Source of the DNA: a virus
Lineage: Duplodnaviria > Caudoviricetes
Reading direction: 5' to 3' (one strand)
DNA: 64,000 nucleotides
IMG/VR virus record: IMGVR_UViG_3300043449_000929
Span: 95 to 64,094 of that record
Below, in pieces: positions 3,916 to 58,158 of the stretch (positions within the stretch are counted from its first letter, which is position 1; each line of letters opens with the position of its first letter). Made by a program: the position numbers and the translations under genes. The notes below the pieces were generated by a model. The model had not been told where the DNA came from. It did no database searches and worked only from the letters and a program-made list of their open reading frames with translations.

Positions 3916-5511
3916 CTACTTCAGCTTGTCGATGTCGGCCTTCTTCACACCCAGAAAGATTGCGTGGACCCAAGCAGTTGTTGCCGCGCCAATTGAACTG
4001 AACAGGGCGGTGGTTATGTCTGTCTTGTCTCGCATGACGATATTCTGATTCACGAAATATAAGTCTGATGGATCAATAACTCTGATAGACGTATTGCCAT
4101 TTGCCGCAAAGATATATGTTCCGACCACTGGGAATAGACCGTCGTATGTCTTCGCTGGCGTATAGACGCGAGAGTCAACATAACCAGCGCCATCAGGTAT
4201 TTGCTGCCCCCACATAACAGATGTGTTCTTGTCGGTTCCGAACTCATACGAACCGTCGGAATAGATATACTGAGGGCCGATCTCAGTGTAGCTCGTCGTC
4301 GTATTCCTCACGCTATCCAGACCGAAAAACGTAGCGTTCGCCAATTGATACGCTGTCTGGTCAAGCGAAATTGAACCACTTGAAATAGAAAGCGTGACAT
4401 TGTCCACGCTTCCGTTATTTGAATACACCATGACGCGCTGATTGAGCGGGATAGTCTGAGGCGCGATGGTCGGATTTTTTACGTAGAAATCCCCAGACTG
4501 ATCCGGCCCAGCAGTGCCGCCATCCCAGCCATTGAGGCCAATATACAAAGCGTCGAGCGCCGCTTGATGAGCATCAGCAAAGAACCTATTCGCGAAACTG
4601 ATGTTATTTATTCTGATACCATTCGCCTGCGTCACGCGCGAAAAGCCCCACAGAACGCCCGTCTTGTCCACCGCAGCGACAGAGTCGGCGCGCGTAATCC
4701 ACGGCCTGACGACAGTGCATGTCGGTGTGCTTTGCGAGAAGTCAGCCTTGTTGCCACAGTTGTCATAGAAGACACGGCCAGTGAAATTTATCAGCGGTCG
4801 GCTGGTGTAGACCGCATTCGTTGGCGACGTTACCGCAGGTCCGAGGATGGTGTTATGGACATTGTAGTAATTCAACCGATCCGTATCTGAGACCGTGCCG
4901 TCTGCGGCGATGGAGATATATGTCGCAGCGACATGCAGGTTGCTTGCCGCCTTGAGTTGCGCCGTTCCGTAATACTGCGATGCGCCGCGGCTCCAGCCTA
5001 TTGTCTTGGTCGTGTAGACCTTCTTGCCGAGAGTGTCCAAGTCCTTCATCGGTATGCCGGCGACCTTGTTCACGCCGCCAGAATTGAAGATGACCAGCAT
5101 GTAGCCGTCGTCTTCTTCGCCAAGAAGCTCCCTGACTGCTTGCGCGGAAACCGTGATAGAAATGGCCTCGTTCCCAAACTGGCTCGCATACTTCATGCCG
5201 ACGCCACTGCCGAGTGGCGTTGTCCGCATGTTGATCTGGTTGTCGCTCAGACCAACTTCCTGCCGGAATGCGTTGAGGTTCTGCTTAACTGCCGAGCCGT
5301 ATCGCCGCATGACGGCGGTTTGAATCTCAACCAGCTTGCGGCTGTCATCAGAGAAGGATGTGTATGGTGGCGTCTGCCCAGGCGCAGGCAATTCCTGATA
5401 TTCACTCGGCAGCTCGATAATAATTCTAGCGACCGGAGGCATTTCTCCGGCATGGTCAAACAGATCGCGCGTAAGCGAAAGATCTACGATACGAGACGGG
5501 AAACTAGACAC
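3916..5511 (-). CDS. Putative virion protein
   Basis: 531-aa ORF overlapping upstream stop; beta-rich composition. Confidence 0.65.
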   Translation of the reverse strand: MSSFPSRIVDLSLTRDLFDHAGEMPPVARIIIELPSEYQELPAPGQTPPYTSFSDDSRKLVEIQTAVMRRYGSAVKQNLNAFRQEVGLSDNQINMRTTPLGSGVGMKYASQFGNEAISITVSAQAVRELLGEEDDGYMLVIFNSGGVNKVAGIPMKDLDTLGKKVYTTKTIGWSRGASQYYGTAQLKAASNLHVAATYISIAADGTVSDTDRLNYYNVHNTILGPAVTSPTNAVYTSRPLINFTGRVFYDNCGNKADFSQSTPTCTVVRPWITRADSVAAVDKTGVLWGFSRVTQANGIRINNISFANRFFADAHQAALDALYIGLNGWDGGTAGPDQSGDFYVKNPTIAPQTIPLNQRVMVYSNNGSVDNVTLSISSGSISLDQTAYQLANATFFGLDSVRNTTTSYTEIGPQYIYSDGSYEFGTDKNTSVMWGQQIPDGAGYVDSRVYTPAKTYDGLFPVVGTYIFAANGNTSIRVIDPSDLYFVNQNIVMRDKTDITTALFSSIGAATTAWVHAIFLGVKKADIDKLK

Positions 5512-6724
5512 GACGCTGCGCCACGAGCGGGATGAACTCTAAACTATCCAGATCGAAATCTTGGCCCGTCGTGATTAGCTCCCACGCAAAGTATCTTGCG
5601 CGCAGTCCTTTACCTACACGAACCTTCGTCGTCTGACGGTTCTGTAGCACAACCTGATATGTGTATGTCTCGCCAGTGCCAGCATCGAGCTTCAGATAGA
5701 CGTTACCGTCTCCGCGCATACCTAGATACGCCGCCTGAAAAGAGGCGTAACGTGAACCCCCAAACTGCGTGTATCCGCTGCGCAGCGAAGCAACAGTCGG
5801 AGTGCCGTCGTCATCGCTCCCTTCAAGGACATATAAGCCCGTGGAAGACGCACCAAGATAGTGATGACCGCTACTCGCAAAAGAGTTGAAAGCATAGTTG
5901 CTATACTCCGTCGTCGCGCCAGTGCGAGTATTCACAGCCCAAGTGGTAAATCCGCCGCCTGGATCAATGATGCCAATGTCGAACGACAACACTTCCGCGA
6001 TTGTCGGCTTAAAGACCATCTGCAAAGTTTGCGCATCAGTGAAGGCAAACGTCTGCGGCACTGTGACAACGGCGATCAGCTTCGGCGTCATCGTCTGCGC
6101 AAGGTTCATCGACTCAGATACGGTAGGCTTGTAAGCGCCAATCGCATTGTATGTCGGAGCGACGTTCAGGTTATCCATAAGAACGCCAGCGAGGAACTTC
6201 TTGAGTAGGTCGTTAAAGGCCAGAACCTCAAGCAGTGTCTGCTTGTAGGTCATGTTGGCGGCATTCGTGCTGACAAGCCCCAACCTGTCAGCGATCAATG
6301 CACCAAGGACAGTTGTAATGGCCGGGGCGACATTCATCGCCTGCGCTATCGTAATCGGGCGACCGACAGTGAAGAGATCAGTCAGGCCGAATTGCTGGGC
6401 GAGGATCTGCTTCAGAACCTGATTAACGCCAAGCGAGCCAGAGACGCCGCACGCCTCAGAGATAGCCGCGCCAGCAACCCACGTTCTAGACAGAGTAGAA
6501 GTGAAATTGAAGCTGCCGCCCCCGCCGCTGACCGTGAGGCCGAGGGCGGGAGCAAGCGCGTTGAATGCCCACGGTAACGACATGGTCTCAGAGAGACTGC
6601 CTGGGAAAGACTTGTTGACTGTAACGGCGCGCGTTGCCGAGATAGACAAGATCTTGCCCGCAGACTTCAACCTAGTGGTTGTCGTCGTGCAGTTCGCAGA
6701 GACTGTGACGTTAAAAACCGTCAT
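5504..6724 (-). CDS. Putative tail structural protein
   Basis: 406 aa; repetitive N-terminus and C-terminal WAVNTRTGATTEY...GKGLRARY region resembling phage tail proteins. Confidence 0.7.
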   Translation of the reverse strand: MTVFNVTVSANCTTTTTRLKSAGKILSISATRAVTVNKSFPGSLSETMSLPWAFNALAPALGLTVSGGGGSFNFTSTLSRTWVAGAAISEACGVSGSLGVNQVLKQILAQQFGLTDLFTVGRPITIAQAMNVAPAITTVLGALIADRLGLVSTNAANMTYKQTLLEVLAFNDLLKKFLAGVLMDNLNVAPTYNAIGAYKPTVSESMNLAQTMTPKLIAVVTVPQTFAFTDAQTLQMVFKPTIAEVLSFDIGIIDPGGGFTTWAVNTRTGATTEYSNYAFNSFASSGHHYLGASSTGLYVLEGSDDDGTPTVASLRSGYTQFGGSRYASFQAAYLGMRGDGNVYLKLDAGTGETYTYQVVLQNRQTTKVRVGKGLRARYFAWELITTGQDFDLDSLEFIPLVAQRRV

Positions 6725-6730
6725 GGGCTA

Positions 6731-7267
6731 TTAGCTCGATGTCAGCGTGAACGAGTAGGTCAGGATAAGCTGGTCGAGATTGACGACCGACTTAGCCGAG
6801 CTGAACAGTGAGGCCGAGAACAGGACGCCGGAAGTCGAGGACTTCGTGCTGACCGACAGAAGGCCCGCGCCGTAGATCGTCTTCGTAGCGTTGAACGTAA
6901 ACGTCGCAGGCGAAGCCGTGTTCGAGATCACGCCACCAGACGCAGAGCCGGGGGTCCACGTAACGCGCGTGCCGGAGGTGTAAGCCGTGGACTCGGTTGC
7001 GTTCGCTGCGAAGTTGCTTGCCGTCCAAGTTGAGCTGGGAGTCGCGTTCGCCTCATATGGCGCAAGGAACCACGACGTAACCTGCGTCGTGCCAGCAAGC
7101 TCAACGCCGAGAATGTGGTTCAGCCCTTCGGTTGGCACAATGTTCTCGTCTTCCCACTCCTCGATGACCTTGCCATCGCGAACATGAAGACCGTGATAAA
7201 CGCCCTTCACGATAACCTTTGACGACGGCACCAGAATGCCCCCGTCAGTCTTCTGGTAGTCCGTCAT
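6731..7267 (-). CDS. Putative tail structural protein
   Basis: AGGAG RBS; NIVPTEGLNHIL...GVLFSAS...LILTYSFT pattern. Confidence 0.7.
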   Translation of the reverse strand: MTDYQKTDGGILVPSSKVIVKGVYHGLHVRDGKVIEEWEDENIVPTEGLNHILGVELAGTTQVTSWFLAPYEANATPSSTWTASNFAANATESTAYTSGTRVTWTPGSASGGVISNTASPATFTFNATKTIYGAGLLSVSTKSSTSGVLFSASLFSSAKSVVNLDQLILTYSFTLTSS

Positions 7268-27965: not shown

Positions 27966-29293
27966 TTAAGCGGTGGCGAGAACTTCCAAACGAGCCATCC
28001 AGGCATCGTTCAGAATGACGGTCGTGGTGTAGAGCTTCCAACCAACGGTGCCGCGCTGAGCCAGCGGATCGCCAGCAGCAGGCTTCGGATTCACAACCAT
28101 CGGCGTCATGCTCGACTTGCCCTTCAGCGGGACAATGCCAAAGGCATCGCGACCGAAGACAAGGATCGGGTAAACGTCTGGATAGCTGGAAGCCGTCGAA
28201 CGGTAGGTCGTGGTAGACGCGCCACCCGAAGTCGCCGCGTCCGTAAACGGAGCGATGATCGTCGAAGTGAGGAAGCGGATCTGTTCGACCGAACCGATCT
28301 CACCGGGAAGCGGCGATGTATGCGGGCCGTAATCCGCAACCGCCTTGAAGCCCGCGAGCGAACGAATGTCCGTTTCGAGGTCAGGGTGGCAAACCGCAAA
28401 GTAAGCACGCTCGACAGACTTCGTGTTGTAGTCAGCGGAAGAACCGATGACCTGCGAAATCTTCTGCGCGTTCTGACGGTTCAGGCCAGTCGCAACACGG
28501 CGAAGGTCAGCAAGCGACAGAGCAGAAGCAAGCAACTGACGGTTTGCAACCTTGTTCGCGTAGAAGACGTTGGTACCCGCCTTCAGCACATTATATCTGA
28601 GCGTCTCTACTGTAGACGCAGCGGATTCACCGAGAACATCAGTGGCCTGCTCAAGCACCGAGTCGGTGTGAGTGTCCATGATGACATCAGTGATGGTGAT
28701 GTAGTCACCATACTGAGCGACAGTCGCCGTGTAGTCCTGATTGGCGAGCTTGTTGCCAACAGGGGTCACGCCTTCAACCAGCGGGGTCGTCGCCAGCGGG
28801 ATGAAGAACGGGTTAGACGCCGAGCCGGAACCAGCAGAGCCGGTCGCGCCGCTAAGGAAATAGCGACGGAACTTGGCAGTCTGAGTGCTGTTGGTCGGGA
28901 GCGGATACGCCTGACCGAATTGCTCAAGCTGAAGGAGGGGCAAACCGCGCTTCAGCATTTTCACAACGGACCCTTACATCTTCACCATTGGTCGCTAATC
29001 AATGATCGCTTCTGTTATGAAGCTGCTGCGTGTTTCCACGCAGAAGAGACTATATCTTCACCCTCTTTCGAGGGGCTGGGAGCTTCGGACCGCTTGGCCC
29101 TACGAGTCGCTACACTCTAGTCGTTACACCTTACTGCATACGCAGTCTTGGCTCGGTATTGCCCTCGTCATTACACGTTAGGGTGTTCACCGACTTCACC
29201 CAGTCACACTACGCGATTGCTCGCGCACGGCCCCAGTCAGATTAAGGCAGCAACCGCAGGCGAAATATCGCCGTAAGCGGTAATCTGAGCCAT
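27966..29293 (-). CDS. Major capsid protein, N4-gp56 family; spliced join(29293..29245, 28972..27966)
   Basis: Exon 1 MAQITAYGDISPAVAA with GGAG RBS; exon 2 has KFRRY, PLVEGVTP, QYGD, GEIGSVE, DPLAQRGTVGWK, ILNDAWMARLEV. Confidence 0.92.
28973..29244 (-). ncRNA. Group I intron (272 nt, no ORF, IA-like)
   Basis: Exon ends in U, intron ends in G; P7 GACUA/UAGUC with GAAGAUAUAGUC; P2, P8, P9 GNRA-capped hairpins; removal restores capsid frame. Confidence 0.92.
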
Positions 29294-39806: not shown

Positions 39807-40318
39807 GCGCAGAGTAAGGGCGTTGATGGCTGGGGCGTCAAATAAGGGGTAGTGAACGCGCAGGAATAATTCCCTGAAAATTCACTAAAAAATTTTTTGG
39901 CAATGCGGTCAGTGGGTTAGGTGTATTTTTGAGGGTTAATTGGAAAAATACCCTGGGGAATTTCTTTGCTCGCTTGAGCTTTGCTATTGCGTAAAAATGG
40001 GAAAAGTTATGGGATGGACCATTAAATAGTATATACAACCACTTATAACCCCCTCGGCCCCTCTGCTCCGGCAAAAGAATTACTTGCCACATACGCGGGC
40101 GGGGCGGCGTTCGGGTCGGGTCGTGGCGCGGCTGGGGGCGTGCGTGACGCCCCACAACTCGGCGCATATGTTTGTTTTTGCTCTCGATCCTGCCGGTTTG
40201 CAGAACCGCCGTAGCGCCTGGGCGGGGCGTTTGTTCGCCTCCCAACCTTGGCTGATGATAATTTATTGTGCAGCCAAGCCAATGCGCTGCCATTAACGCA
40301 CCACCGCGAGAGGACGGA

Positions 40319-40765
40319 ATGTCAATTATCGGCACCGAGTTGGATGACTTGGACCCCGCCACCGACCGCCCGGCCCCGGCAGATGACACACTCACGCCGC
40401 TCGACGTCAGGCTTCGCACCGTTCTTGACGCCATCCCGCTGGCAACGAGGCGCGAGGGATTGACCTTGGAGGCGCTACAGGCCCGGCTGAAGGGGCGACG
40501 CAAGGCGCGTTGTCATCCCGGCGAGCTAGGAGCGGCGCTTGTGAAACTCGGATATGAGCGAAAGAGAGATTGGCGAGTCGGCGCTAGTTATCTCGCGCGC
40601 TGGTATCCGCCCGGCTATGGACCGCAAGGCCGGGAAATGTCGCACCGTGTCATCCGGCGACTGAGATACGAACGCCCCGATTTATTCCCGACCTACGGCG
40701 AGCGATCCAAGCAGGACATGAGAGAGGCGCGCAGACAGGCCGCGCGCGAGCTAGGTCTGATCTAG
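40319..40765 (+). CDS. Hypothetical DNA-binding protein (winged-helix-like)
   Basis: GAGG RBS; LGAALVKLGYERKR. Confidence 0.55.
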   Translation: MSIIGTELDDLDPATDRPAPADDTLTPLDVRLRTVLDAIPLATRREGLTLEALQARLKGRRKARCHPGELGAALVKLGYERKRDWRVGASYLARWYPPGYGPQGREMSHRVIRRLRYERPDLFPTYGERSKQDMREARRQAARELGLI

Positions 40766-41112
40766 CCCGCTTCATTCCACCGCGCCCCGATCTCATCGAG
40801 CGCCCGGCGCACGGCGCACAGTTCGCCCAGCGTCCGAGGATAGCGACCCTGGCCCTCTATCACGGCGCGCTCAAGCGGCCCGAGATACGGAGCTAGGAGA
40901 CGATAGCGCCGGATCACCACCCGCTCAAAGGCGTCCAGCCGGGCCGTGGAGAGGCGACGCGCGTTCCCGGCGTCATTATCCCACCCGTCCGCATAAGAGC
41001 CACTGACGAGCCGTCTATAGGCTCCCGAGAGCGCCGCCCACTTTCGCGCCGTGGCGAACTGCTCGACCGTGATTCGACCGCCCGCCGCCAGCTTTGACAA
41101 TACGCACCGCAT
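40762..41112 (-). CDS. Hypothetical protein
   Basis: GGAGG upstream; L...GRIT..QF..A..W motif. Confidence 0.55.
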   Translation of the reverse strand: MRCVLSKLAAGGRITVEQFATARKWAALSGAYRRLVSGSYADGWDNDAGNARRLSTARLDAFERVVIRRYRLLAPYLGPLERAVIEGQGRYPRTLGELCAVRRALDEIGARWNEAG

Positions 41113-41200
41113 GACAGAAGACCCTCCCGAGACGCCGCGCAGATAGCGTCCAACCAGCTAGGGCTTCGCGTCAAATACGGCTGACCGTGGAGAGCCGTCT

Positions 41201-41515
41201 AATTCTTTCCATTCTTTCCAGCACCCCTACATACATCGAAAAAGATATGGTTAAGCTCAAGTGTATTTTGGAGCTAAACACTTTTGTGCGGAAAGAATGG
41301 AAAGAATGATTTTGAGAGAGAGAGAAAGAATAATAAAAAAATATATATATATAAATACAACTACTTACTACGCCTTACCCCTGTCTATAACGCTTAAGGT
41401 CAAGCGCCATTCTTTCCATTGGAAAGAATTTGGAAAGAAGGAAAGAATTAACCGCAAGCTTTGCATTTATGCGTTCTTTCCCACGGAAAGAATGTCTCCG
41501 GGAAGGAAAGAATAG
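41201..41515. repeat. Iteron-like GGAAAGAA cluster around AT-rich core; candidate replication origin
   Basis: About 11 copies in both orientations flanking taataaaaaaatatatatatataaata. Confidence 0.65.
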
Positions 41516-41626
41516 AGGCGTTGGCGCACTAGACCGCCCGCACAATCTCCCGCCCACATAGCACCCACCCTGCCACGCCTCGCACCGCCCGCGACACTTT
41601 GTCGCACATAAATCTAACTAGCTATA

Positions 41627-41655
41627 TTGACTAGTGAGAAAGGCGGGACTATAAC
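41627..41655 (+). promoter_or_regulatory. sigma70-type early promoter
   Basis: TTGACT-N17-TATAAC directly upstream of the small-gene operon. Confidence 0.8.
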
Positions 41656-41702
41656 TAGTTTTGTTGGACGTTACAGCGTCCCGCACAAAGGAGAGAGAGA
41701 CA

Positions 41703-41981
41703 ATGCGTGACGCTTTCCACTTTTACGCTGATCCCGGCCATGGCTGGCTTCGCGTGACTGAAGACGACCTGGCAGACGTTGGCCTGACCGCCGACAGCTT
41801 CAGCCGTTACAGCTACGTGAACGGCCCGCGCTTCTACCTTGAAGAAGACTGCGACGCCGGTGTGTTCCTCGACGCTTACACCGCCAAGCGTGGCGCGGCC
41901 CCCGTCATTTTTGAACACCACTCAAATGGCGACAGCCTGATCCCCACCTATACGCGCCTTCCTGGCGCAAACCGCACCTAA
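41703..41981 (+). CDS. Early hypothetical protein
   Basis: AGGAGAGAGA RBS; DPGHGWL...YLEEDCDA motif. Confidence 0.8.
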   Translation: MRDAFHFYADPGHGWLRVTEDDLADVGLTADSFSRYSYVNGPRFYLEEDCDAGVFLDAYTAKRGAAPVIFEHHSNGDSLIPTYTRLPGANRT

Positions 41982-41982
41982 A

Positions 41983-42036
41983 GGCCGAAACGGGGGTCCG
42001 CCCCCGTCTTCCCGTGACGCGGGAACTGACGAGGCC
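41983..42036 (+). ncRNA. Hammerhead ribozyme, type II
   Basis: GGCC-GAAA-stem III(CGGGGG/CCCCCG)-UC-stem I(UUCCCG/CGGGAA)-CUGACGA-GGCC; GUC cleavage triplet 42006-42008. Confidence 0.92.
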
Positions 42037-42081
42037 AGCCGTTACAGCGGCGCACCGAGCAGAAAACAGGAGAGAGAGACC

Positions 42082-42975
42082 ATGGCAAAGAGAGACCTAC
42101 ACGCCGAAATCACCGCCCGTATTGTGGCGTTGCTCGACGCTGGCACGATCCCGTGGCGCAAGCCCTGGAGCGAGACCAACACCGGCTTTGGCGCCATGCC
42201 GCGCAACGCCGTGACGCGCCGCGCCTACTCCGGCGCGAATGTCGTTCTGTTGTGGGCTACGGCCCAGGAACGCGGCTATGAACAGCCCCGGTGGGCGACG
42301 TTCAAGCAGATCGCAGAAGCGGGCGGCAACGTCCGCAAGGGCGAGAAGTCAACGCCGGTTATCTATACGAGCAGCATCGAGAAGACCGACGAGGAGACCG
42401 GCAAGCTTCGCCGCATCGCCTTTCTCAAATCCTTCAACGTCTTCAACATCGCGCAGTGTGACAACGTGGACGCTCTACAGGAAGAACGCGCGCCGCGCAT
42501 TATCAACCCCGGCCAGCGCGACGAGATCGCGGAAGGCTTCATCGCCTCGACCGGCGCGGAAGTCAGGCACGGCGAGGCGCGCGCCTACTACACGACAGCG
42601 GGAGACTATATCAACCTCCCGATGTTCGAGAGCTTCACCAGCGCGCCGGAATACTACAGCACCGCCTTTCACGAGCTGACCCACTGGACCGGCGCATCGC
42701 ACCGGCTCAACCGGGAATTTGGCAAGCGCTTTGGCGATCATTCCTACGCCGCCGAGGAACTTGTCGCGGAACTTGGCTCAGCGTTCGTTTGCGCCGAGTT
42801 CGGTCTGGACAACCACACCTTGGACAATTCCGCAGCCTACATTGCGTCATGGAAAAAGCGCCTCACGGAGAACGATAAGTTGTTTGTCGCCGCCGCCTCC
42901 CACGCATCCAAGGCCGTTGACTTCATGCGCGGCCTCGCTCTTGAGGCCGACACAGAGGAGCCAATCGCAGCATGA
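42082..42975 (+). CDS. ardC: ArdC-family antirestriction / ssDNA-binding protein with zincin-like domain
   Basis: PWRKPW, YSGAN, WATFKQ, VRKGEK, FNVFNIAQ, HELTHWTG, YAAEELVAE. Confidence 0.92.
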   Translation: MAKRDLHAEITARIVALLDAGTIPWRKPWSETNTGFGAMPRNAVTRRAYSGANVVLLWATAQERGYEQPRWATFKQIAEAGGNVRKGEKSTPVIYTSSIEKTDEETGKLRRIAFLKSFNVFNIAQCDNVDALQEERAPRIINPGQRDEIAEGFIASTGAEVRHGEARAYYTTAGDYINLPMFESFTSAPEYYSTAFHELTHWTGASHRLNREFGKRFGDHSYAAEELVAELGSAFVCAEFGLDNHTLDNSAAYIASWKKRLTENDKLFVAAASHASKAVDFMRGLALEADTEEPIAA

Positions 42976-43059
42976 CGTTTGCCTTTTGGGGGCGGGACCG
43001 AACATCCCGCCGCCCAATGGGGAACCGTTACAGCGGGACCACAGAAGGAGAGAGAGACC

Positions 43060-43482
43060 ATGGGACTCGATATGTATCTAAACGGAAGGCTTTCTATCAT
43101 TCCGAAACGGGACGACAGCGAGCAAAAAATCGACGGGAAGCGAGTCAAGGAAATAACCGTTGAGTTAGGATACTGGCACAAACATCCCGATTTGCATGGA
43201 TATATCGTCAACACTTTCGCGGGCGGGGATGACAATTGCCAAGCAATCCGCCTCGACCGGGAAGACGTTGAAAAGATCATATCCGCCATCGAGAACGACG
43301 ACTTAGCCCACGGGACGGAAGGATTTTTTTTCGGGAAATCCTACCAACCCGGCGAAACAAACGAATACGGATCATACGAAGATCAGAAAAAGGACGATCT
43401 AGAAATCTTCAAATCAGCCATCGAATGGTTGAAAAATGAAGACGATAAAAACTGGCGCGATATTGAATACGAAGCCAGTTAG
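43060..43482 (+). CDS. Early hypothetical protein (MGLDMYL family)
   Basis: MGLDMYL...ELGYWHKHPDLHG...GFFFG; strong RBS. Confidence 0.85.
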   Translation: MGLDMYLNGRLSIIPKRDDSEQKIDGKRVKEITVELGYWHKHPDLHGYIVNTFAGGDDNCQAIRLDREDVEKIISAIENDDLAHGTEGFFFGKSYQPGETNEYGSYEDQKKDDLEIFKSAIEWLKNEDDKNWRDIEYEAS

Positions 43483-43574
43483 TGAGCCTCACACCCTGCC
43501 CATCAGCAACGGTGGGCAGACTGGGAAGCTTACAGGCAACCCCCGCTTTACAGAGCGGAGACAGGAGAGAGAAC

Positions 43575-43670
43575 ATGCAATCGACCTTGCTTATCATGGA
43601 AGCGACCGCCGCCGCCATCCTGACGACCGTTTACGCGCAGCCGGTGGTTGCGTGGCTTATCGCGAAGTAA
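43575..43670 (+). CDS. Small hydrophobic peptide (31 aa)
   Basis: Preceded by TTACAG hairpin and AGGAGAGAG. Confidence 0.55.
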   Translation: MQSTLLIMEATAAAILTTVYAQPVVAWLIAK

Positions 43671-43680
43671 GGGGCCGACG

Positions 43681-43863
43681 ATGTATTACACCTACAGCAG
43701 GCACCGCAGCAGGGACGCCGCCGAGTCCGCACTGGAGGAGTATTTCGCGACCGGAGAAGTCAGCGACGGAGAATGGCCGCGCATTAAATATGAGCGAAGC
43801 CGTGGTTGGTTAGTCCAGTTCTACGACTGGACATATCCGACCTTTGAAGCGCCGACACGCTGA
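43681..43863 (+). CDS. Early hypothetical protein
   Basis: AAGGGG upstream; 60 aa. Confidence 0.6.
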   Translation: MYYTYSRHRSRDAAESALEEYFATGEVSDGEWPRIKYERSRGWLVQFYDWTYPTFEAPTR

Positions 43864-43951
43864 GCCTCACGCCGGGGGCGGGTGACGCCGCCCCCCACGG
43901 GAAGCTTAGGCGACCTGCCGTCTTACAGGACGGTCACACAGGAGAGAGAAC

Positions 43952-44134
43952 ATGCGCAAACAGAAGAACACGACCCGCAAGGCCAAGAACGCCGCCAATA
44001 TGGAATCGACCCATTGGGACTTTTTCCTATACAGCGGCGAATGGTTTGCCCGCCTTTCATTCCCCGACGCTAAGACAGTCCGCAAGCTGTTTCCTGGCGC
44101 CAAGGTGGAAGGGCAAAGTGTTTATTTAGCCTGA
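43952..44134 (+). CDS. Early hypothetical protein
   Basis: Hairpin + AGGAGAGAG RBS. Confidence 0.7.
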   Translation: MRKQKNTTRKAKNAANMESTHWDFFLYSGEWFARLSFPDAKTVRKLFPGAKVEGQSVYLA

Positions 44135-44218
44135 CCCTTTCGGCATAGGGACGGACGCCCGCCCCTATCGCGAAGCGGTCAGCTTCCCGCGTTACAGCGC
44201 GGAATATAGGAGAGAGAG

Positions 44219-44563
44219 ATGATAAACTGCAAGGTTCAAGCAAACGGCGATTTGCTAGTCACAGCCGACAACGAGGCGCGCAACTATATCCGCGAGCATA
44301 TCGAACGCGGCTATTGGACGACGTTTTATGAATTGTTCGAGCCATTCTTTACGAATGGTTCCTATGAGCCGTTCGACGCCGGGAACGCTGATCCTTTTGT
44401 CGGGCTTACAAGCGCACCGTGCATCGCTGAGGCTATCTGTCATCCAGACGAAGGCCCCCGCAAAGTGGATGGCCGTCTATGGTGGTTTCCGAACTACATG
44501 GTTTGCGACCCGCTGGACGAGCTAAAGAATAAGGGCCGCACCGTCTTTGCGCTTGCGGAATAA
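44219..44563 (+). CDS. Early hypothetical protein
   Basis: Hairpin + AGGAGAGAGAG RBS. Confidence 0.8.
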   Translation: MINCKVQANGDLLVTADNEARNYIREHIERGYWTTFYELFEPFFTNGSYEPFDAGNADPFVGLTSAPCIAEAICHPDEGPRKVDGRLWWFPNYMVCDPLDELKNKGRTVFALAE

Positions 44564-44611
44564 CCCCAGCCTATTCCCGCGTTACAGCGCGGAATAAAGG
44601 AGAGAGAAGCC

Positions 44612-44893
44612 ATGAGCGAGCAAATAAACTTTAAGCGCTTCCACAATTTCGAGGCGCGCTACCATCGCAACGGCATTTGCGGCGTTGGGTTCTACGCTTG
44701 CAAATTCCTGTATGTTGACGAGCGAGGACGCGCCATCGACGAAATCATAGCCGCCTACTTTCCCAAAGATGGAGAGACAGCAGAATATTATGCGGTAATG
44801 TCCGATGATATTGGATGCAGATGGCGCGGCGATCATTTCGTTGACGACCTACGCGACGCAATAGAAACCTACGGCGCTTTGGCCCACGCCTGA
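44612..44893 (+). CDS. Early hypothetical protein
   Basis: Hairpin + RBS; YHRNGICGVGF...WRGDHF motif. Confidence 0.8.
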   Translation: MSEQINFKRFHNFEARYHRNGICGVGFYACKFLYVDERGRAIDEIIAAYFPKDGETAEYYAVMSDDIGCRWRGDHFVDDLRDAIETYGALAHA

Positions 44894-44974
44894 CCCCAGC
44901 CTATAGAGCGTCAGTCCCGGCTGGCGCTTTATGGGAAGCGGTTACAGCCGTTTCGTTAGAAGGAGTAGAGAGCA

Positions 44975-45259
44975 ATGAGAAAGATCAGAATAACGGCCAA
45001 GTTCGAGAACAGCCCGCAAACGCTTGGATGGATTGCATGGGTTACGGGGGATGAATACGGGCCGCACTATCTAGGCAACACGCACACTTCTTTTTGTGAA
45101 GCTATAGAAACAGCGGCACGAGTCATTATGTCGCAGAACCCAATGGCACGAATTTCGAGCTATGATCCAACGCCCGCGCAAATGAAAAAAGCAGCGCGCG
45201 CCGTCGCATGGCAAAACGATCAATCGTTTTTTACCCATGACTGGGTGAAAATTCAGTAA
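44975..45259 (+). CDS. Early hypothetical protein
   Basis: Hairpin + AAGGAG RBS. Confidence 0.75.
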   Translation: MRKIRITAKFENSPQTLGWIAWVTGDEYGPHYLGNTHTSFCEAIETAARVIMSQNPMARISSYDPTPAQMKKAARAVAWQNDQSFFTHDWVKIQ

Positions 45260-45271
45260 GGAGCCACGCCA

Positions 45272-45487
45272 ATGCGTAAACTTATAACCGCCGCCGCCTT
45301 CCTGGCCGCGACCGCTGCTAACGCCGGTTACTTATATGAGCCGCCGCAGATCAGCCCATACGAGCGGAACCAGCGCCAAATGCAGCAACAGCTCGACGAC
45401 ATACAAAGGATGCAGCAGCTCCAAATCATGCGGCAGCAGGAACAGCTAGAGCAGCAGCGCCGGGATATGATGCTTTTTGGACGCTAA
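45272..45487 (+). CDS. Small secreted Gln-rich protein
   Basis: Signal peptide MRKLITAAAFLAATAANA; AAGGAG RBS. Confidence 0.7.
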   Translation: MRKLITAAAFLAATAANAGYLYEPPQISPYERNQRQMQQQLDDIQRMQQLQIMRQQEQLEQQRRDMMLFGR

Positions 45488-45494
45488 ACAAACC

Positions 45495-45527
45495 GCCCCC
45501 GGCAGTTACAGCTACCGGGGGCTTTTT
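45495..45527 (+). terminator. Rho-independent terminator whose loop is TTACAG
   Basis: GCCCCCGGCAG-TTACAG-CTACCGGGGGC-TTTTT. Confidence 0.8.
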
Positions 45528-45583
45528 CAGCGCACGCAGACGGAGAGAGAGACTCGAAATCCGCGCGGCCAGGATGCTATATC

Positions 45584-45784
45584 ATGACAATGAGCCTAGA
45601 AGCCAAGGAATATATGCGGCGCAGCCGGGACAAACGCCAAGCCCAAGGCGGGAAGCAAGTCGCCGTTATGCTTACACCGGAAGAAAACGCCGCCCTTGAA
45701 AAACTCAAGTCAAAGCTAGGGTTAAACGCCCGCGACTCTATCGGCAAGGCGCTACTGGACGCCGCCCGTCGCGTTAAAATCTGA
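45584..45784 (+). CDS. Small basic DNA-binding protein (ribbon-helix-helix-like)
   Basis: GGKQVAVMLTPEE..AL..LK pattern. Confidence 0.65.
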   Translation: MTMSLEAKEYMRRSRDKRQAQGGKQVAVMLTPEENAALEKLKSKLGLNARDSIGKALLDAARRVKI

Positions 45785-45830
45785 ACAAGCCCAGGCCCAG
45801 CTCGTTTCGTCCCGGCCAGCCAAAAAACAG

Positions 45831-45874
45831 ACCGCCCCGTGTTCGCCCTCACATGCGCGCGGGGCGGTTTTTTT
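45831..45874. terminator. Probable bidirectional terminator between convergent units
   Basis: ACCGCCCCG...CGGGGCGGT followed by T run, A run upstream. Confidence 0.7.
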
Positions 45875-46058
45875 ATTCCGCGCGTTTTCCAATCACCGCA
45901 TAAAGATGGTCTATCTCGGAATAGTATTCCTCAATAACCTCCTCTGCCCGCGCCAAATTGATCTGCGCGTCCCTCGCGCGCCGCGCCTGTTCTACGTGAT
46001 CGTAGCGGTTATCGTGCAGCTTCTTCCAGATCGCAGTCTCGACTTCAACAGTTCCCAT
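45873..46058 (-). CDS. Hypothetical protein
   Basis: 61-aa helical ORF at end of replication operon. Confidence 0.5.
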   Translation of the reverse strand: MGTVEVETAIWKKLHDNRYDHVEQARRARDAQINLARAEEVIEEYYSEIDHLYAVIGKRAE

Positions 46059-46247
46059 CGCAGCCCCCTACCGCACTCTCGACAAATCTTCTCGGACGCA
46101 CGCCACGCGAACGCCATCAAAGATGGCTATTATCAATCCGCTGCAAATTGACTCGACAAAGCCGCAATCGCCATTGCGGAACCGACCGAATATCGTGCAG
46201 CGTTTCAATCTCACCCTATCCCCAACATTTAGCCTCACGCCAAACTC

Positions 46248-48620
46248 CTATTTTAGAAACGTGTAAGACACAGCCTTGCGGCCAACGTGCTTGCTGTCTT
46301 CGCCTACCAGCTCCTCTATCCGCTCGGATTCTTTCAGCGCAGACAAAACCTCTTCAAGTCTCCGAGACGGGAGACGAACACTCCGAATAAGACTCGCGCG
46401 CGTGGCTCGTTTATTCCGCTTCAAAAACCCGAGAACCTTATTGACCTCGCCCTCCCAGGACGAATCCGAAATCTTATCCTCTGAACTGACGACCATGCTA
46501 TCGACGCAGGAAAAGACAAACTCTTCCGCCCAAGCGAGATCCGTTACGGTCACGGCTGGCTTGCGCCAATCAATCCCGATGGCACGAATGGTTGCAACCT
46601 TAATCGTATTCTCGGCGGCGCGGGCGTAGAGCGGACTTATGTCGTCCCGCATTTTGTCAGCACGATCTTCTATGTCTATCCAAGCCAGCTTCGCTTCGTC
46701 GTCTGCAAATGGGACAAACTCAGGCGGCGCTGTTACCGGCGTGACGCCATCACCATGAAACGGAGCGGAGGTAAGACCGTCTCGGTGATAAACACCCCGG
46801 CAAGCTTCAATCAGGTCAGCAGGAACATCACTCGCAAAGCTTTCTGGTTGCAGCTTTGCTGGTTTGTCGTCGCTTTTGATAATGATGAAGCGATTAAGAA
46901 GACCATTTGTTATCTCCGACGCAGACAGCCGTGAATATAGTTCGTCCTCTGTTGCTACGCCGAAAATAATTAGGTGCGGCCAATAAATTCGCGCAGCCTG
47001 CCGTGCGGCGGATTCTGAAGAAGTGAATATCCTGAACGACGCCGACCACAGTGAGCGATTGGTTGACGACAGCCCGGTTTCGTAAGAAGCCGCGTTCCGG
47101 CTTGACCCCTTACCCATGAAGTTAGCGATCTCATCCATGCAGCAAATGAGATTAGGCTGGCGGGATAAGGCGCTGGTTATTGATACGTCAGACTTAAATT
47201 CTGACGGGCCAAGATGGTTCTCTAGACCGCAAGCGCGAACGACTTCGGCAATGCAGTCAAGAGGGTGCTGCTTCCCGTATCCGGTTGGGCAGCAGCAAAT
47301 CATATAAAGAGCAGTTGATGATCCAGTTGGGCCGCGATACTGGCGTCCCGCGAGCAACCCTACCGTAGCGATGGCCGCAGCCATAGCAAACATTGGCTGT
47401 TGACGGCGCGCAGTATGGTTGCCATGCGCGGCAAGCATACCGAGCAGCCCAGGCGCCTGAGTTATATCCATGAGTGACTTATTCGGGCGAGGCGCGATCT
47501 CCGCTTTGACGGGCGGCAGTTCGATAGGCGCGGCAGGCGCAGGCTCGGCTTCGACCGAATCTTGCTCAAGGCGATTAAGCTGCGACAGATCGACCTTCAC
47601 GTAGCCTTGCAAAATATCGGACAGGTATCGGAAGGCTTCGCCAGAGGTGAGACGACGCGCGCGGGCGACGAGATCAATCGGGCTATATCCCTTATCACCG
47701 TCTCCGAAATCGACGATGGTATGGCGATGGACGTTGATCTTCAGATTGCGTTCACGGTCAGCGTCGGCCTTCCCGGTTCCAGACTGCGACCAGACACCAA
47801 CAGCCTCAAAACCAGACGAGGTTCTGCGCAGCTTGAACAGGTTCAGCGCCAGAATCCATTTCTCAGGCTGAGACCATGCTTCTTCGTTGAGCTGGCGGTA
47901 AGGGTGACTGTCATCGAAGTTCTGAAAACGCGGGTCGCCAGCTTTTGCTGCTTTGTCCAAAGCATAAGAGTGCGGCATCGCGTCAGGGTTATAGCCGTGT
48001 TCGCGCAGGACGTTGGACAGAATCTCGAACGTGTTCTCCGGCAGCTCAGGAAGATCGCTCGGCTCTATCTCATCGAGGGCGTAGTTCCCGGTCCAGACAT
48101 AAGGAACGCCAGTCTTAGGATGTATCGACGGCGGCAAAACAGTCTGCTTTCCTTCACCGAGAACATCGACCAGACGCACGATCCGACCGTCAGGCTTTGT
48201 CCCGTTGAAGAAAGATGAAACGACTGTCTTTGAGCGGAAAAAGAATGTCGCGCCTTTCTGGCCGCGCTTGACGACATCAGTGTAAGGCAGCGCGCGACGA
48301 ACATCATCAACGGCGTCGTCATCGTCAACGTCTATTGCGACGACATACTGAGACGCGCGACCAAGGACGAGACAGATACCGCCGTCTGGTTTCTCCGACC
48401 AAGAATTAACCTGCCATGTTGACGGCATGTTAGTGGCGTAGCGTGAAGTCCAGCTTGTCATGGGCCTCCATTCACCGGAGTGATAGTCGGCTGGTATCTT
48501 GTCTCCAGGCATACACGGAATAACGCAGAAGCCATGCTCGATTAGCTTCTTGCCATAAACACCATAGGGGGAAGTCAAGGCGCATCTCTCCCGCACGAAC
48601 AAATCCAAATCATCAGGCAA
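46248..48620 (-). CDS. Bifunctional primase/polymerase fused to DUF3987-type helicase
   Basis: VIP..PGDK.P, AIDVD, TVLPPSIHP; Walker A PTGYGKQ, DE, GLLNRF; start approximate. Confidence 0.85.
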   Translation of the reverse strand: MPDDLDLFVRERCALTSPYGVYGKKLIEHGFCVIPCMPGDKIPADYHSGEWRPMTSWTSRYATNMPSTWQVNSWSEKPDGGICLVLGRASQYVVAIDVDDDDAVDDVRRALPYTDVVKRGQKGATFFFRSKTVVSSFFNGTKPDGRIVRLVDVLGEGKQTVLPPSIHPKTGVPYVWTGNYALDEIEPSDLPELPENTFEILSNVLREHGYNPDAMPHSYALDKAAKAGDPRFQNFDDSHPYRQLNEEAWSQPEKWILALNLFKLRRTSSGFEAVGVWSQSGTGKADADRERNLKINVHRHTIVDFGDGDKGYSPIDLVARARRLTSGEAFRYLSDILQGYVKVDLSQLNRLEQDSVEAEPAPAAPIELPPVKAEIAPRPNKSLMDITQAPGLLGMLAAHGNHTARRQQPMFAMAAAIATVGLLAGRQYRGPTGSSTALYMICCCPTGYGKQHPLDCIAEVVRACGLENHLGPSEFKSDVSITSALSRQPNLICCMDEIANFMGKGSSRNAASYETGLSSTNRSLWSASFRIFTSSESAARQAARIYWPHLIIFGVATEDELYSRLSASEITNGLLNRFIIIKSDDKPAKLQPESFASDVPADLIEACRGVYHRDGLTSAPFHGDGVTPVTAPPEFVPFADDEAKLAWIDIEDRADKMRDDISPLYARAAENTIKVATIRAIGIDWRKPAVTVTDLAWAEEFVFSCVDSMVVSSEDKISDSSWEGEVNKVLGFLKRNKRATRASLIRSVRLPSRRLEEVLSALKESERIEELVGEDSKHVGRKAVSYTFLK

Positions 48621-57272: not shown

Positions 57273-57500
57273 TTATGCGTTTTGCTTTTTTCCAACTGGC
57301 TTAGGCCAAAGATCGGGACGAGAAACCCAAAGCGGGATTACGCCGCCAGAAGCTTTCTCTAACAAAACTGCCATCTCTGCTGGGATTCCAGACTTCCGCC
57401 AATAGCTGACGGTTGACTGACGCTTGCCCAGAATGCGTGCCAGTTCGGCTTGACTGCCGAGTGTCTCGACTACTGCGTTGTAGGAAGTTTCATAGTTCAT
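57273..57500 (-). CDS. cro: Cro-like repressor (YdaS family)
   Basis: GSQAELARILG..QSTVSYW...IP...RPDLW; divergent from cI. Confidence 0.85.
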   Translation of the reverse strand: MNYETSYNAVVETLGSQAELARILGKRQSTVSYWRKSGIPAEMAVLLEKASGGVIPLWVSRPDLWPKPVGKKQNA

Positions 57501-57588
57501 GAACGTCAAGCTATACGAAGTTTCAGAGGCGTCAATCGTATTTTCTAAAATTTAACGACACGCCAAATTTGATGGGGTATAGTTAGCT
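57481..57588. promoter_or_regulatory. Divergent cro/cI promoter-operator region
   Basis: Minus-strand TTGACG(57535)-N16-TAGCTT with TACGAAGTTTCA in the spacer; plus-strand TATAGT 57578-57583. Confidence 0.65.
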
Positions 57589-58158
57589 ATGTCCGAGCTT
57601 GGGAAAAGAGTCGCACAAGTAAGGAAAGAACACGGTTGGACGCAGAGGGAACTTGCGCGCCGTGTTCGTAGTGTGAATCCAGAACTCGAAACGACATTCA
57701 CAACCATCTCATCAATAGAGATCGGCAAAAGCGAAGCCCCGACGATCCTGACTGAGTTAGCTATAGCTCTTGGGGTAAGCGCGACTTGGCTAAGGACGGG
57801 ATCTGATACCCCCTCTAAGCTAGATCGGATTTTTCAGTCGAAGCCATCGAAGCGACCGCACTATATTGCAGAGTGGATGGAGCGTCGTAATCTAACCAAG
57901 GCTGACCTCGCTCGCGACATTGGCGCAGGGAAAGCCGAGATCATGCGCTGGCTTGAAGATGACGCCGCGCCTGACGCAGAATACGCCGACAGGTTGAAAG
58001 CATATTTTGGGGCTGGGGTTGAGGGCATATTCAGCCACCCCGACGCCGATTGGCTCACTCGATTCTTTGAGGGGAGAAGACGGGATGAGATTGAGCGGAT
58101 TAAAGCTACGCTAGAGACAGCGTTCCCCCAAAAGAAGAAAACTTCAAACGGAGATTAG
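57589..58158 (+). CDS. CI-like repressor with two XRE HTH domains
   Basis: WTQRELA...ISSIE.G and LTKADLARDIG...I.RW; no S24 peptidase visible. Confidence 0.8.
   Translation: MSELGKRVAQVRKEHGWTQRELARRVRSVNPELETTFTTISSIEIGKSEAPTILTELAIALGVSATWLRTGSDTPSKLDRIFQSKPSKRPHYIAEWMERRNLTKADLARDIGAGKAEIMRWLEDDAAPDAEYADRLKAYFGAGVEGIFSHPDADWLTRFFEGRRRDEIERIKATLETAFPQKKKTSNGD

Follow-up and report, generated by a model that had tools for sequence, protein, structure and literature searches.

ArdC operon of the window phage

We analysed a 64,000-nucleotide stretch of viral DNA (Duplodnaviria; Caudoviricetes; IMG/VR record IMGVR_UViG_3300043449_000929, positions 95 to 64,094), hereafter called the window, in which an operon of small genes that includes ardC is punctuated by short hairpins with an invariant TTACAG loop. 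The source record has a length of 64,094 bp and is complete, with direct terminal repeats; the window omits just 94 of its bases. Since its gene set includes terminase-like, integrase and excisionase genes as well as CI-like and Cro-like regulators, besides PrimPol and helicase genes, the window represents a temperate tailed phage. The Cro-like gene occupies 57273-57509 and the CI-like gene 57589-58158. The small-gene operon lies on the plus strand at 41.6 to 45.8 kb, where it converges on minus-strand replication genes and diverges from minus-strand packaging and head genes. In agreement with the original prediction, which had named ArdC as a member of this operon, the gene at 42082-42975 codes for a protein with an ArdcN domain (5.7e-40) and a zincin peptidase domain (1.7e-44; both Pfam). 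ArdC was the only operon protein recognized in searches of Pfam and PHROGs; the other nine were without significant match, and the sole match among them was to one weak PHROG of unassigned function (E 0.006).

A sigma-70-like operon promoter can be read by eye at the following position, surrounded by three copies of ACTAG(T/C):

41627-41655, plus strand: -35 TTGACT at 41627-41632, 17-nucleotide spacer, -10 TATAAC at 41650-41655

The original prediction had placed a promoter at 41627, and both of its elements are indeed legible there; the consensus promoter scan, however, omitted this pair and listed a different one (its rule requires a T ending the -10). Between 40500 and 46500, the scan gave a single promoter-like site besides the promoter read by eye.

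TTACAG hairpins are a selected element confined to the operon

Nine stemmed TTACAG hairpins had been claimed for this operon. All nine are present on the plus strand between 41666 and 45522, and a tenth, degenerate copy with its loop at 43530 had been missed. The copies are as follows:

41666-41681, plus strand: hairpin 1, GGACG/TTACAG/CGTCC, loop at 41671, 5 pairs
42038-42051, plus strand: hairpin 2, GCCG/TTACAG/CGGC, loop at 42042, 4 pairs, before ardC
43025-43036, plus strand: hairpin 3, CCG/TTACAG/CGG, loop at 43028, 3 pairs
43523-43542, plus strand: hairpin 4a, degenerate, GGGAAGC/TTACAG/GCAACCC, loop at 43530, 5 pairs with an AA/AA internal loop
43543-43558, plus strand: hairpin 4b, CCGCT/TTACAG/AGCGG, loop at 43548, 5 pairs
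43917-43934, plus strand: hairpin 5, (G)CCGTC/TTACAG/GACGG(T), loop at 43923, 6 pairs (5 Watson-Crick)
44187-44202, plus strand: hairpin 6, CCGCG/TTACAG/CGCGG, loop at 44192, 5 pairs
44577-44592, plus strand: hairpin 7, stem identical to that of hairpin 6, loop at 44582, 5 pairs
44935-44954, plus strand: hairpin 8, GAAGCGG/TTACAG/CCGTTTC, loop at 44942, 7 pairs including one G·U, before the variant Shine-Dalgarno (SD) sequence AGGAGTAGAGAG
45495-45527, plus strand: hairpin 9, TTACAG loop at 45506, 11-position stem with one C·A mismatch, then T5

Counting both strands, TTACAG occurs 26 times in the window against 16.1 expected, a number that none of 100 shuffles reached. Eleven of these occurrences lie on the plus strand between 41671 and 45511, namely, the nine stemmed copies, the degenerate one and a stemless one at 41807 within gene 1, which is flanked by 1 pair only. 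With stem length taken as the number of contiguous pairs, G·U allowed, none of the 15 TTACAG outside this stretch of the complete 64-kb genome had a stem of at least 3 pairs, and 300 dinucleotide shuffles yielded a mean of 0.67 TTACAG with such a stem (maximum, 4) versus 8 observed. Thus, the count elsewhere in the genome and the shuffled controls that the original prediction had proposed both came out in favor of the element. An ungapped alignment of the ten copies was invariant in the six loop positions only and contained no invariant stem column; nevertheless, 81% of its stem cells were paired, compared to 40% in 500 shuffles (none as high) and 28 to 41% when the 3' partners were slid out of register. 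Double-sided changes were found in seven of the seven stem pairs. The claim that compensatory stems around a fixed loop reflect selection is therefore well borne out.

A covariance model built from the copies recovered nine of the ten at 19.9 to 26 bits (the copy at 43530 was not recovered at E<=10), whereas the best match outside the training set in the 64 kb scored 14.7 bits (E 0.15). As training copies match by construction, the informative part of this result is the score gap, and it sets the copies apart from the rest of the genome. Within 40000-47000, an Rfam scan at E<=10 returned Hammerhead_II at 41983-42044 and otherwise chance-level matches only, none of them on the hairpins; scans at the gathering score of the window and nine loci gave a group I intron and DUF3800-IX only. 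The former is located in the window on the minus strand at 29026-29254 (RF00028, 62.1 bits; gathering score, 50), the latter in a related locus, L133, at 438-507 on the minus strand (RF02968, 61.3 bits; gathering score, 36.8). In line with the original prediction, which did not recognize the motif as a named one, the TTACAG hairpins are a real, selected element that is absent from Rfam and uncatalogued.

Predicted folds were not uniform among the copies. In the six-letter UUACAG loop, RNAfold closed a U·G pair, leaving UACA. Hairpin 3 can be extended via an AA/GA internal loop to GG/CC; its minimum-energy structure instead paired UGACG of the stop region with CGUUA, while the centroid retained the hairpin. 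Hairpin 4a competes with the base of a long hairpin anchored at a stop codon. The outer scaffold of hairpin 6, TTCC..GGAA, is common to two related loci described below (L133 and L296). Hairpin 9 is present in the minimum-energy structure and is probably the operon terminator, as had been proposed: its long stem and T5 tail fit this role, but the stem contains the C·A mismatch, and the terminator scan listed 45495-45522 on the minus strand only, where the mismatch is a G·T.

Each independently initiated gene has a hairpin before its ribosome site

Eight hairpins end 4 to 16 nucleotides before AGGAG and 16 to 30 nucleotides before a start codon, which confirms that eight copies lie just 5' of a ribosome site. 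Hairpin 1 is located ~5 nucleotides past the inferred transcript start (the -10 ends at 41655) and 21 nucleotides before the ATG at 41703. The original prediction saw a hairpin before nearly every gene. This is true for 8 of the 10 genes in 41703-45487, but not for the genes starting at 43681 and 45272, which have spacers of 10 to 12 nucleotides, are translationally coupled and lack a hairpin. Since the genes without a hairpin are the coupled ones, the rule is therefore one hairpin per independently initiated cistron.

The ribosome sites themselves are part of an extended SD block:

41688-44974, plus strand: eight extended SD blocks, each followed by ATG, with GGAGAGAGA at 41690, 42069, 43047, 43564, 43941, 44209 and 44599 and a variant near 44962

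GGAGAGAGA is exact at the seven operon starts, and another exact copy is found at 45542, ~40 nucleotides before the start at 45584. Three minus-strand genes without a TTACAG hairpin (39265, 49315 and 50414) use it as well, so that the block belongs to the phage at large, in contrast to the hairpin, which this operon alone possesses. In predicted ensembles, the mean unpaired probability of the SD was 0.39 to 0.70, i.e., it was neither clearly open nor clearly closed.

All 27 hairpins from six lineages (see below) share the orientation of the genes. The original prediction had argued from the G·U pair of hairpin 8 for the plus strand, as RNA. This argument did not hold, since interior mismatches over the 27 hairpins comprised 3 G·T versus 5 A·C. 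What points to the transcript is the orientation of the genes, the short and bounded distance to the SD and the lack of hairpins at coupled genes.

A hammerhead ribozyme adjoins the hairpin before ardC

The spacer before ardC contains a further RNA structure:

41983-42036, plus strand: type II hammerhead (RF02276, 36.1 bits; gathering score, 37; E 4e-6, in a short stretch)

Its core is complete, as judged by a regular expression and a check of the stems. The 3' tail of the ribozyme runs into the 5' arm of hairpin 2, and the Rfam alignment extends through CAGCCGUUA into the 5' arm and loop of this hairpin. Type II hammerheads usually have a pseudoknot at a position just past stem II. At this position, 3 nucleotides past stem II, lies CGUUAC (42040-42045), which reaches from the 5' arm of hairpin 2 into its loop and is complementary to (G)UGACG in loop I of the hammerhead (42014-42019) over 6 bp, one of them G·U. 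In one of the relatives described below, L135, a type II hammerhead (29.7 bits) is likewise located directly 5' of the hairpin before ardC; its loop I has the same letters, but no CGUUAC-like partner was found. A role as an accessory of the hammerhead is thus possible for hairpin 2 only: in the window, the ribozyme is present in one of eight spacers, and seven spacers have a hairpin without a ribozyme. In the predicted folds of the other long spacers, a large hairpin with the upstream stop codon at its base precedes the TTACAG hairpin; in spacers 3 and 4, a TTACAG hairpin has to compete with this base.

In four other viral contigs, ArdC is likewise flanked by type II hammerhead cores whose stems are intact (L161, 4508-4554 and 6220-6268; L164, 3714-3759; L169, 5600-5645; L202, 2098-2150). 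No same-loop hairpins were found in these four.

Related ArdC operons carry the same design with other loop words

Loci retrieved with ArdC as the query (80 viral, 80 genomic and 80 metagenomic loci, plus 17 viral loci found with the L135 protein) were scanned for loop words that recur on different stems. The same hairpin design was found in five further lineages of uncultured phages with ArdC operons:

L135/L136: loop CGACAA, five copies
L127: loop CGCCAG, three copies, and one CCGCCA
L128-L132: loop CCGCCA, three copies, and one CGCCAG
L133: loop CCGCCA, three copies, and a terminal copy
L296: loop TTCACAG, three copies

The CCGCCA loop is followed by G, and all five loop words, TTACAG included, end in C-A-purine. 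Each of the relatives' copies stands before a start codon and its extended SD block, the latter being specific to the lineage. In the 55-kb record of L135 (G001), all five CGACAA hairpins with at least 5 pairs belong to the ArdC operon, on whose strand they fall within 4 kb. In L128 and L130, the first hairpin begins directly after the -10. The last copy seen was a long-stem hairpin with the same loop motif in the window, L135, L133 and L296; in the window, L135 and L296, a small gene with a candidate DNA-binding product comes next, two of these being weak matches. No recurrent-loop hairpins were found in the 80 genomic ArdC loci, where recurrent loops lay within coding sequence, and no same-loop hairpins in the 80 metagenomic ones; the scan of the metagenomic and the 17 additional viral loci matched L294/L295 (of the L135 lineage), L296 and a promoter repeat in L305, all of them viral contigs.

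Spacer 6 of the window and a spacer of L133 (6211) align over GAAGCGnTCAGCTTCC...GGAA, while their inner stems and loops differ. L296 has the stem and flank of the window copy (ttcccgcg...cgcgg) with one additional loop letter. The hairpin top therefore changes as a unit on a conserved scaffold. The phages of the window and of L127/L130 share integrase, excisionase, CI-like and Cro-like genes at 37 to 49% identity. In L127/L130, a CGCCAG hairpin of 7 pairs (three G·U) is found at the integrase gene int (G002, ~9957, minus strand; G003, 17567, plus strand), and its 3' arm is the int SD, which points to translational control. L127 and L130 furthermore have in common an 87.7%-identical cassette (5308-5580 and 6542-6817, respectively) of one 63-amino-acid gene and its downstream spacer, which begins at the SD block and ends exactly at the next ATG, with unrelated flanking genes.

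Searches by short words were of little use. A pattern of TTACAG plus the SD block matched at least 117 stretches of viral contigs, all single and rejected as chance matches; apart from the window's own locus, those fetched from this pattern each had at most one TTACAG with a stem. Exact 16- and 17-mers of the window and L296 hairpins occurred in 12 and 9 viral contigs, about the chance level, as single copies and, apart from L296's own contig, not before ribosome sites. An 18-mer of the L127 module was found in the known relatives and in L416 only, where it is a chance match within coding sequence without ArdC, and the gene at 44219-44563 had no match in viral contigs. WWACAG within 40 nucleotides before ArdC starts was present in 15 of 191 distinct leaders against a background of 2.1%, a number that we did not rely upon because many of the loci are related.

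Other ArdC loci were organized differently. In L161, an unstructured TTACAG stands just before the ArdC ribosome site. ArdC loci of the Bradyrhizobium/Nitrobacter type (L207-L227 and L314-L323) have a long, conserved leader in which CCTGTCCATG is part of a GC-rich hairpin and TAACAGCGAGGC follows ahead of the start; the word ACAGCGAGG in these leaders resembles the TTACAG-CG of the phage hairpins. L305 has the palindrome AGGACTTGACGTCCT with a -35-like TTGAC and, 17 nucleotides on, a -10-like hexamer before three genes (3943, 5314 and 8543); these look like repeated operator-promoters, another solution for coordinating a gene set that contains ArdC. Palindromes of the type TGGCCATTGTGGCCA, which surround ArdC and its neighbors in both orientations in L125 (~4440-6020), are likely double-stranded DNA operators and not RNA hairpins.

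Control region, operon-end gene and loop partner

Between the late operon and the ArdC operon lies a divergent control region, and a repeat array fills it upstream of the promoter of the latter:

41202-41513, both orientations: 12 GGAAAGAAT repeats, 9 of them exact

Of 25 matches to GGAAAGAAT in the window (11.8 expected), 12 belong to this array, which is probably an operator array for some regulator. Also present in the region are two simple runs, (AG)n at 41313-41325 and (AT)n. In L133, an analogous array of TTTGCGG-type repeats lies upstream of the operon.

Just past the terminator copy, a candidate regulator is encoded:

45584-45784, plus strand: 66-amino-acid gene, putative ribbon-helix-helix (RHH; CopG/RepB-like) DNA-binding regulator

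The 66-amino-acid protein had no significant sequence match in Pfam or PDB. Its Atlas feature score to RHH_1/RepB-RCR_reg clusters was 0.94, and the TM values to CopG-type models were 0.53 to 0.63; from these models, it is probably an RHH DNA-binding regulator, which we treat as a lead only. Proteins in the operon-end slot of L296 and L135 gave weak helix-turn-helix matches (E 0.16 and 0.036, respectively), and no regulator was found in L127, L130 or L133.

A complement of the loop was not found adjoining any hairpin, nor was a pseudoknot partner found within the operon, where the complement occurs at 0.75/kb compared to 1.58/kb genome-wide. Since it is rare there and never beside hairpins, the loop would therefore be free for a partner in trans.

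Hairpins as possible labels read in trans

Because the loop is invariant and the stems are free, because each ribosome site has one hairpin, and because the loop word is private to a lineage and has no partner in cis, we infer that the TTACAG hairpins, which stand in the leaders of all independently translated cistrons of the ArdC operon, act in cis as RNA and are read in trans; the presence of a reader and the direction of its effect belong to the same step of reasoning. The reading that we favor, tentatively and at a little short of an even chance, is drawn from the sequence: the hairpin would be an "address label" on the mRNA, and a putative trans factor that reads its loop would coordinate translation or stability of the whole operon. 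One trans-acting reader, probably a phage or host protein, would recognize the loop and adjust all cistrons jointly, in their translation initiation, their mRNA stability or both; it might, for instance, silence the anti-defence genes once the first minutes of infection have passed. The end copy with the long stem would double as a terminator, gating read-through into the gene for the small RHH regulator. As the hairpin lies inside the region covered by the 30S subunit, it most likely acts on translation initiation or, as the second choice, on the stability of the message. Lineage-specific loops and a top swapped on a homologous scaffold are what a loop-reading trans factor predicts. Being a selected structure on one strand of one operon, with an invariant loop and a placement tied to ribosome sites, the hairpins lend partial support to the original proposal of a repeated protein binding site.

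A wider version of this reading is possible but doubtful. The hairpin top would then be the swappable specificity module of a loop-coded posttranscriptional regulon, in which each lineage has its own word and a coevolving putative reader. To the same doubtful degree, this regulon would label anti-defence cistrons and, in some lineages, int too. Its reader could then be a conserved host component, e.g., a part of the ribosome or an RNase, in which case the hairpins would represent a widespread and so far undescribed class of signals for translation initiation in phages. In either version, a per-cistron loop label would, if true, be a simple, portable control for any newly captured gene and would explain the free shuffling of operon content. 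Anti-defence genes are needed at once on infection and are then turned down, and little is known about how many unrelated small phage genes are coordinated beyond promoter repression and Aca RNA operators. The loop swap on a conserved scaffold is a ready-made orthogonality test, and if the reader were found, the parts could serve synthetic operon design.

Several observations weigh against labels read in trans. The wobble statistics given above (3 G·T, 5 A·C) do not favor RNA over DNA. Loops depart from the ArdC tree: at 69% identity of their ArdC proteins, L135 and L296 have different loops, whereas the window and L296, at ~48%, have nearly the same hairpin. TTACAG, TCACAG, CCGCCAG and CGACAA were also found stemless just 5' of the SD in L297, L299, L300 and L161, because of which the loop word may work as a linear element. 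No reader was found, ArdC is the only operon gene common to all lineages, and tblastn of the operon proteins against all loci linked gene 1 to L212 and a 60-amino-acid protein to L127 only, yielding no conserved candidate reader. The product of 45584-45784 is probably not the loop reader, since the window and L296 have near-identical hairpins but different end genes (an RHH lead versus a weak helix-turn-helix match). Finally, the Aca precedents read conserved stems and not loops (PMC13551039).

Alternative explanations

The strongest competitor, although unlikely, is that the hairpins are passive structural modules without any reader. The message would be cut between genes by the hammerhead and host RNases; the small hairpin would cap the downstream 5' end and insulate the SD from upstream pyrimidine tracts, and the long stop-codon hairpins would cap the 3' ends. 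Several features fit this model: hammerheads directly 5' of the pre-ardC hairpin in the window (hairpin 2) and L135, a first hairpin ~5 nucleotides from the inferred transcript start or, in L128/L130, directly after the -10, and in every long spacer a large stop-codon hairpin followed by a small one. Clustered hammerheads flanking prophage genes, including next to ardA, are also on record (PMC3088659). However, any loop would do for a cap or insulator, while all 10 of the 10 copies have the same loop and other lineages have it replaced as a set. Moreover, the stems have just 3 to 7 bp, the ribozyme occupies one of eight spacers, and the SD is only partly free.

Less probable still is that the hairpins mark junctions of mobile gene cassettes, with spacer modules that let small accessory genes recombine, like the PeSL of T4-type phages. 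Operon gene content differs almost wholly between lineages, the 87.7%-identical block of L127/L130 runs from the SD block to the next start codon, the window and L296 share hairpin and flank in spite of their distant ArdC proteins, and the PeSL provides a precedent (PMC2839356, PMC4122927). On the other hand, the one mapped junction is in the SD-ATG block and not in the hairpin, six conserved letters are too few for homology-driven exchange, and recombination leaves both the compensatory stems and the strict sense orientation unexplained. With a single promoter-like site in 40500-46500, promoter-bearing cassettes are not at hand either.

Antitermination of the boxB type, which the original prediction had included among the possible functions, appears quite improbable. 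In this model, a small basic phage protein would bind the loops on nascent RNA and allow polymerase to read through the hairpin-rich spacers. The nut boxB of lambda and P22 is a short hairpin on nascent early RNA with a conserved loop and a stem varying between phages, which is read by N. The TTACAG hairpins resemble it in that the loop is conserved and the stem varies, every spacer contains a GC-rich hairpin, and the window proteins starting at 43681, 43952 and 45584 have basic N-terminal stretches. In L135, moreover, the last five letters of the loop are those of the P22 boxB loop. But the boxB loop is GNRA-like with five letters, and the site occurs once, heading its operon, accompanied by boxA and by an N gene downstream; none of these traits was found here. 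The loop has six letters, there are nine or ten sites per operon, the spacer hairpins are without T-runs, and none of the 10 operon proteins had an N-like Pfam or PHROG match. A boxA-like 8-mer, with 1 mismatch allowed, matched 36 times against 44 expected and was thus not enriched; neither of its two plus-strand matches in the operon is placed 5' of a TTACAG hairpin in the manner of a boxA.

Slightly more remote than antitermination is a target for a trans-acting antisense RNA, i.e., loops kissing a complementary loop of a phage small RNA of the c4 type. The minus-strand late-operon leader, if transcribed, would have (UC)6 at 41313-41325, complementary to GGAGAGAGA; this possible anti-SD leader is low-complexity sequence and may be due to chance. 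CTGTAA occurs seven times on the plus strand, and TTACAG eight times on that strand outside the operon, but none is in a hairpin loop or beside an anti-SD run, and the control region (41113-41660) contains no loop complement.

The trinucleotide CTG is preferred by DnaG-type primases. A signal at the DNA level, with hairpins extruded from single-stranded or supercoiled DNA for priming, nicking or replication, would accord with the wobble counts, with the CTG that the complementary strand shows in the loop for four of the five loop types and with the single-stranded DNA binding that the Pfam name assigns to the N-terminal domain of ArdC, but it is the least probable of all, as the fixed short distance to the SD and the lack of hairpins at coupled genes have no reason at the DNA level, all copies are within one operon of a 64-kb genome, and the L135 loop yields TTG and not CTG. 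CRISPR-repeat mimicry, CsrA, MazF-type cleavage sites, T-loops and RNase P mimicry were set aside as unlikely, because the stems vary, the loops are without GGA, or the word is not common to all lineages.

Comparison with known systems

Coat proteins of MS2 and PP7 read loop letters on a stem of free sequence, and T4 RegA shuts off many early messages at their ribosome sites. Labels read in trans would resemble both, but an MS2-type operator occurs as a single copy that includes the SD or AUG, RegA acts at sites without structure, and among the operon proteins Pfam and PHROGs gave no homologue of the MS2/PP7 coat proteins or RegA. A literature search found no description of per-cistron invariant-loop hairpins in ArdC operons.

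Three spacer elements of other phages share some of the traits. In cluster K mycobacteriophages, SAS is a conserved, asymmetric block of ~13 bp that includes the SD of a subset of nonstructural genes in one orientation, and in ESAS an inverted repeat lies upstream of about half of them, with a consensus that differs by subcluster (PMC3203893). The extended block GGAGAGAGA at the starts of a gene subset is similar to SAS. In contrast, ESAS has conserved 17-bp arms and a variable spacer, whereas here the arms vary and the 6-nucleotide center is invariant, and the hosts and phage groups are unlike those here (PMC3203893). The PeSL of T4-type phages, an early promoter plus a terminator-like stem, is likewise reported as a repeated spacer module, in a hyperplastic region where it flanks small early ORFan genes (PMC2839356, PMC4122927), and in the one pair of our loci examined (L127/L130) a mosaic junction was at the module; here, however, a single promoter serves the operon, and what stays invariant is the loop. 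As in the clustered hammerheads that flank prophage genes (Perreault et al. 2011; PMC3088659), a type II hammerhead is located in the spacer before an anti-restriction gene, with spacer hairpins in the slot beside it. The TTACAG hairpin probably differs by lying outside the catalytic fold, and seven of eight spacers have no ribozyme.

By analogy, the nearest published case is the Aca family. Aca1 and Aca2 bind RNA hairpins that lie just past the transcript start and end ~20 nucleotides before the start codon of anti-defence operons, while Aca14, an RHH protein, represses such operons at the DNA level, with no RNA motif found in its case (PMC13551039). The likeness extends to an anti-defence operon, a first hairpin at the inferred transcript start (21 nucleotides from the ATG here versus ~20) and covarying pairs, and may include the small gene at the 3' end if this does encode a DNA-binding regulator. 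In the Aca hairpins, it is the conserved lower stem that is recognized, in the manner of a DNA duplex, and this stem is similar to the promoter operator, whereas the hairpins here keep their loop and let their stems vary; the promoter repeats ACTAGT and GGAAAGAAT bear no resemblance to the hairpin. Whereas an Aca operon, as described there, has one hairpin, the ArdC operon has nine or ten, one per cistron (PMC13551039).

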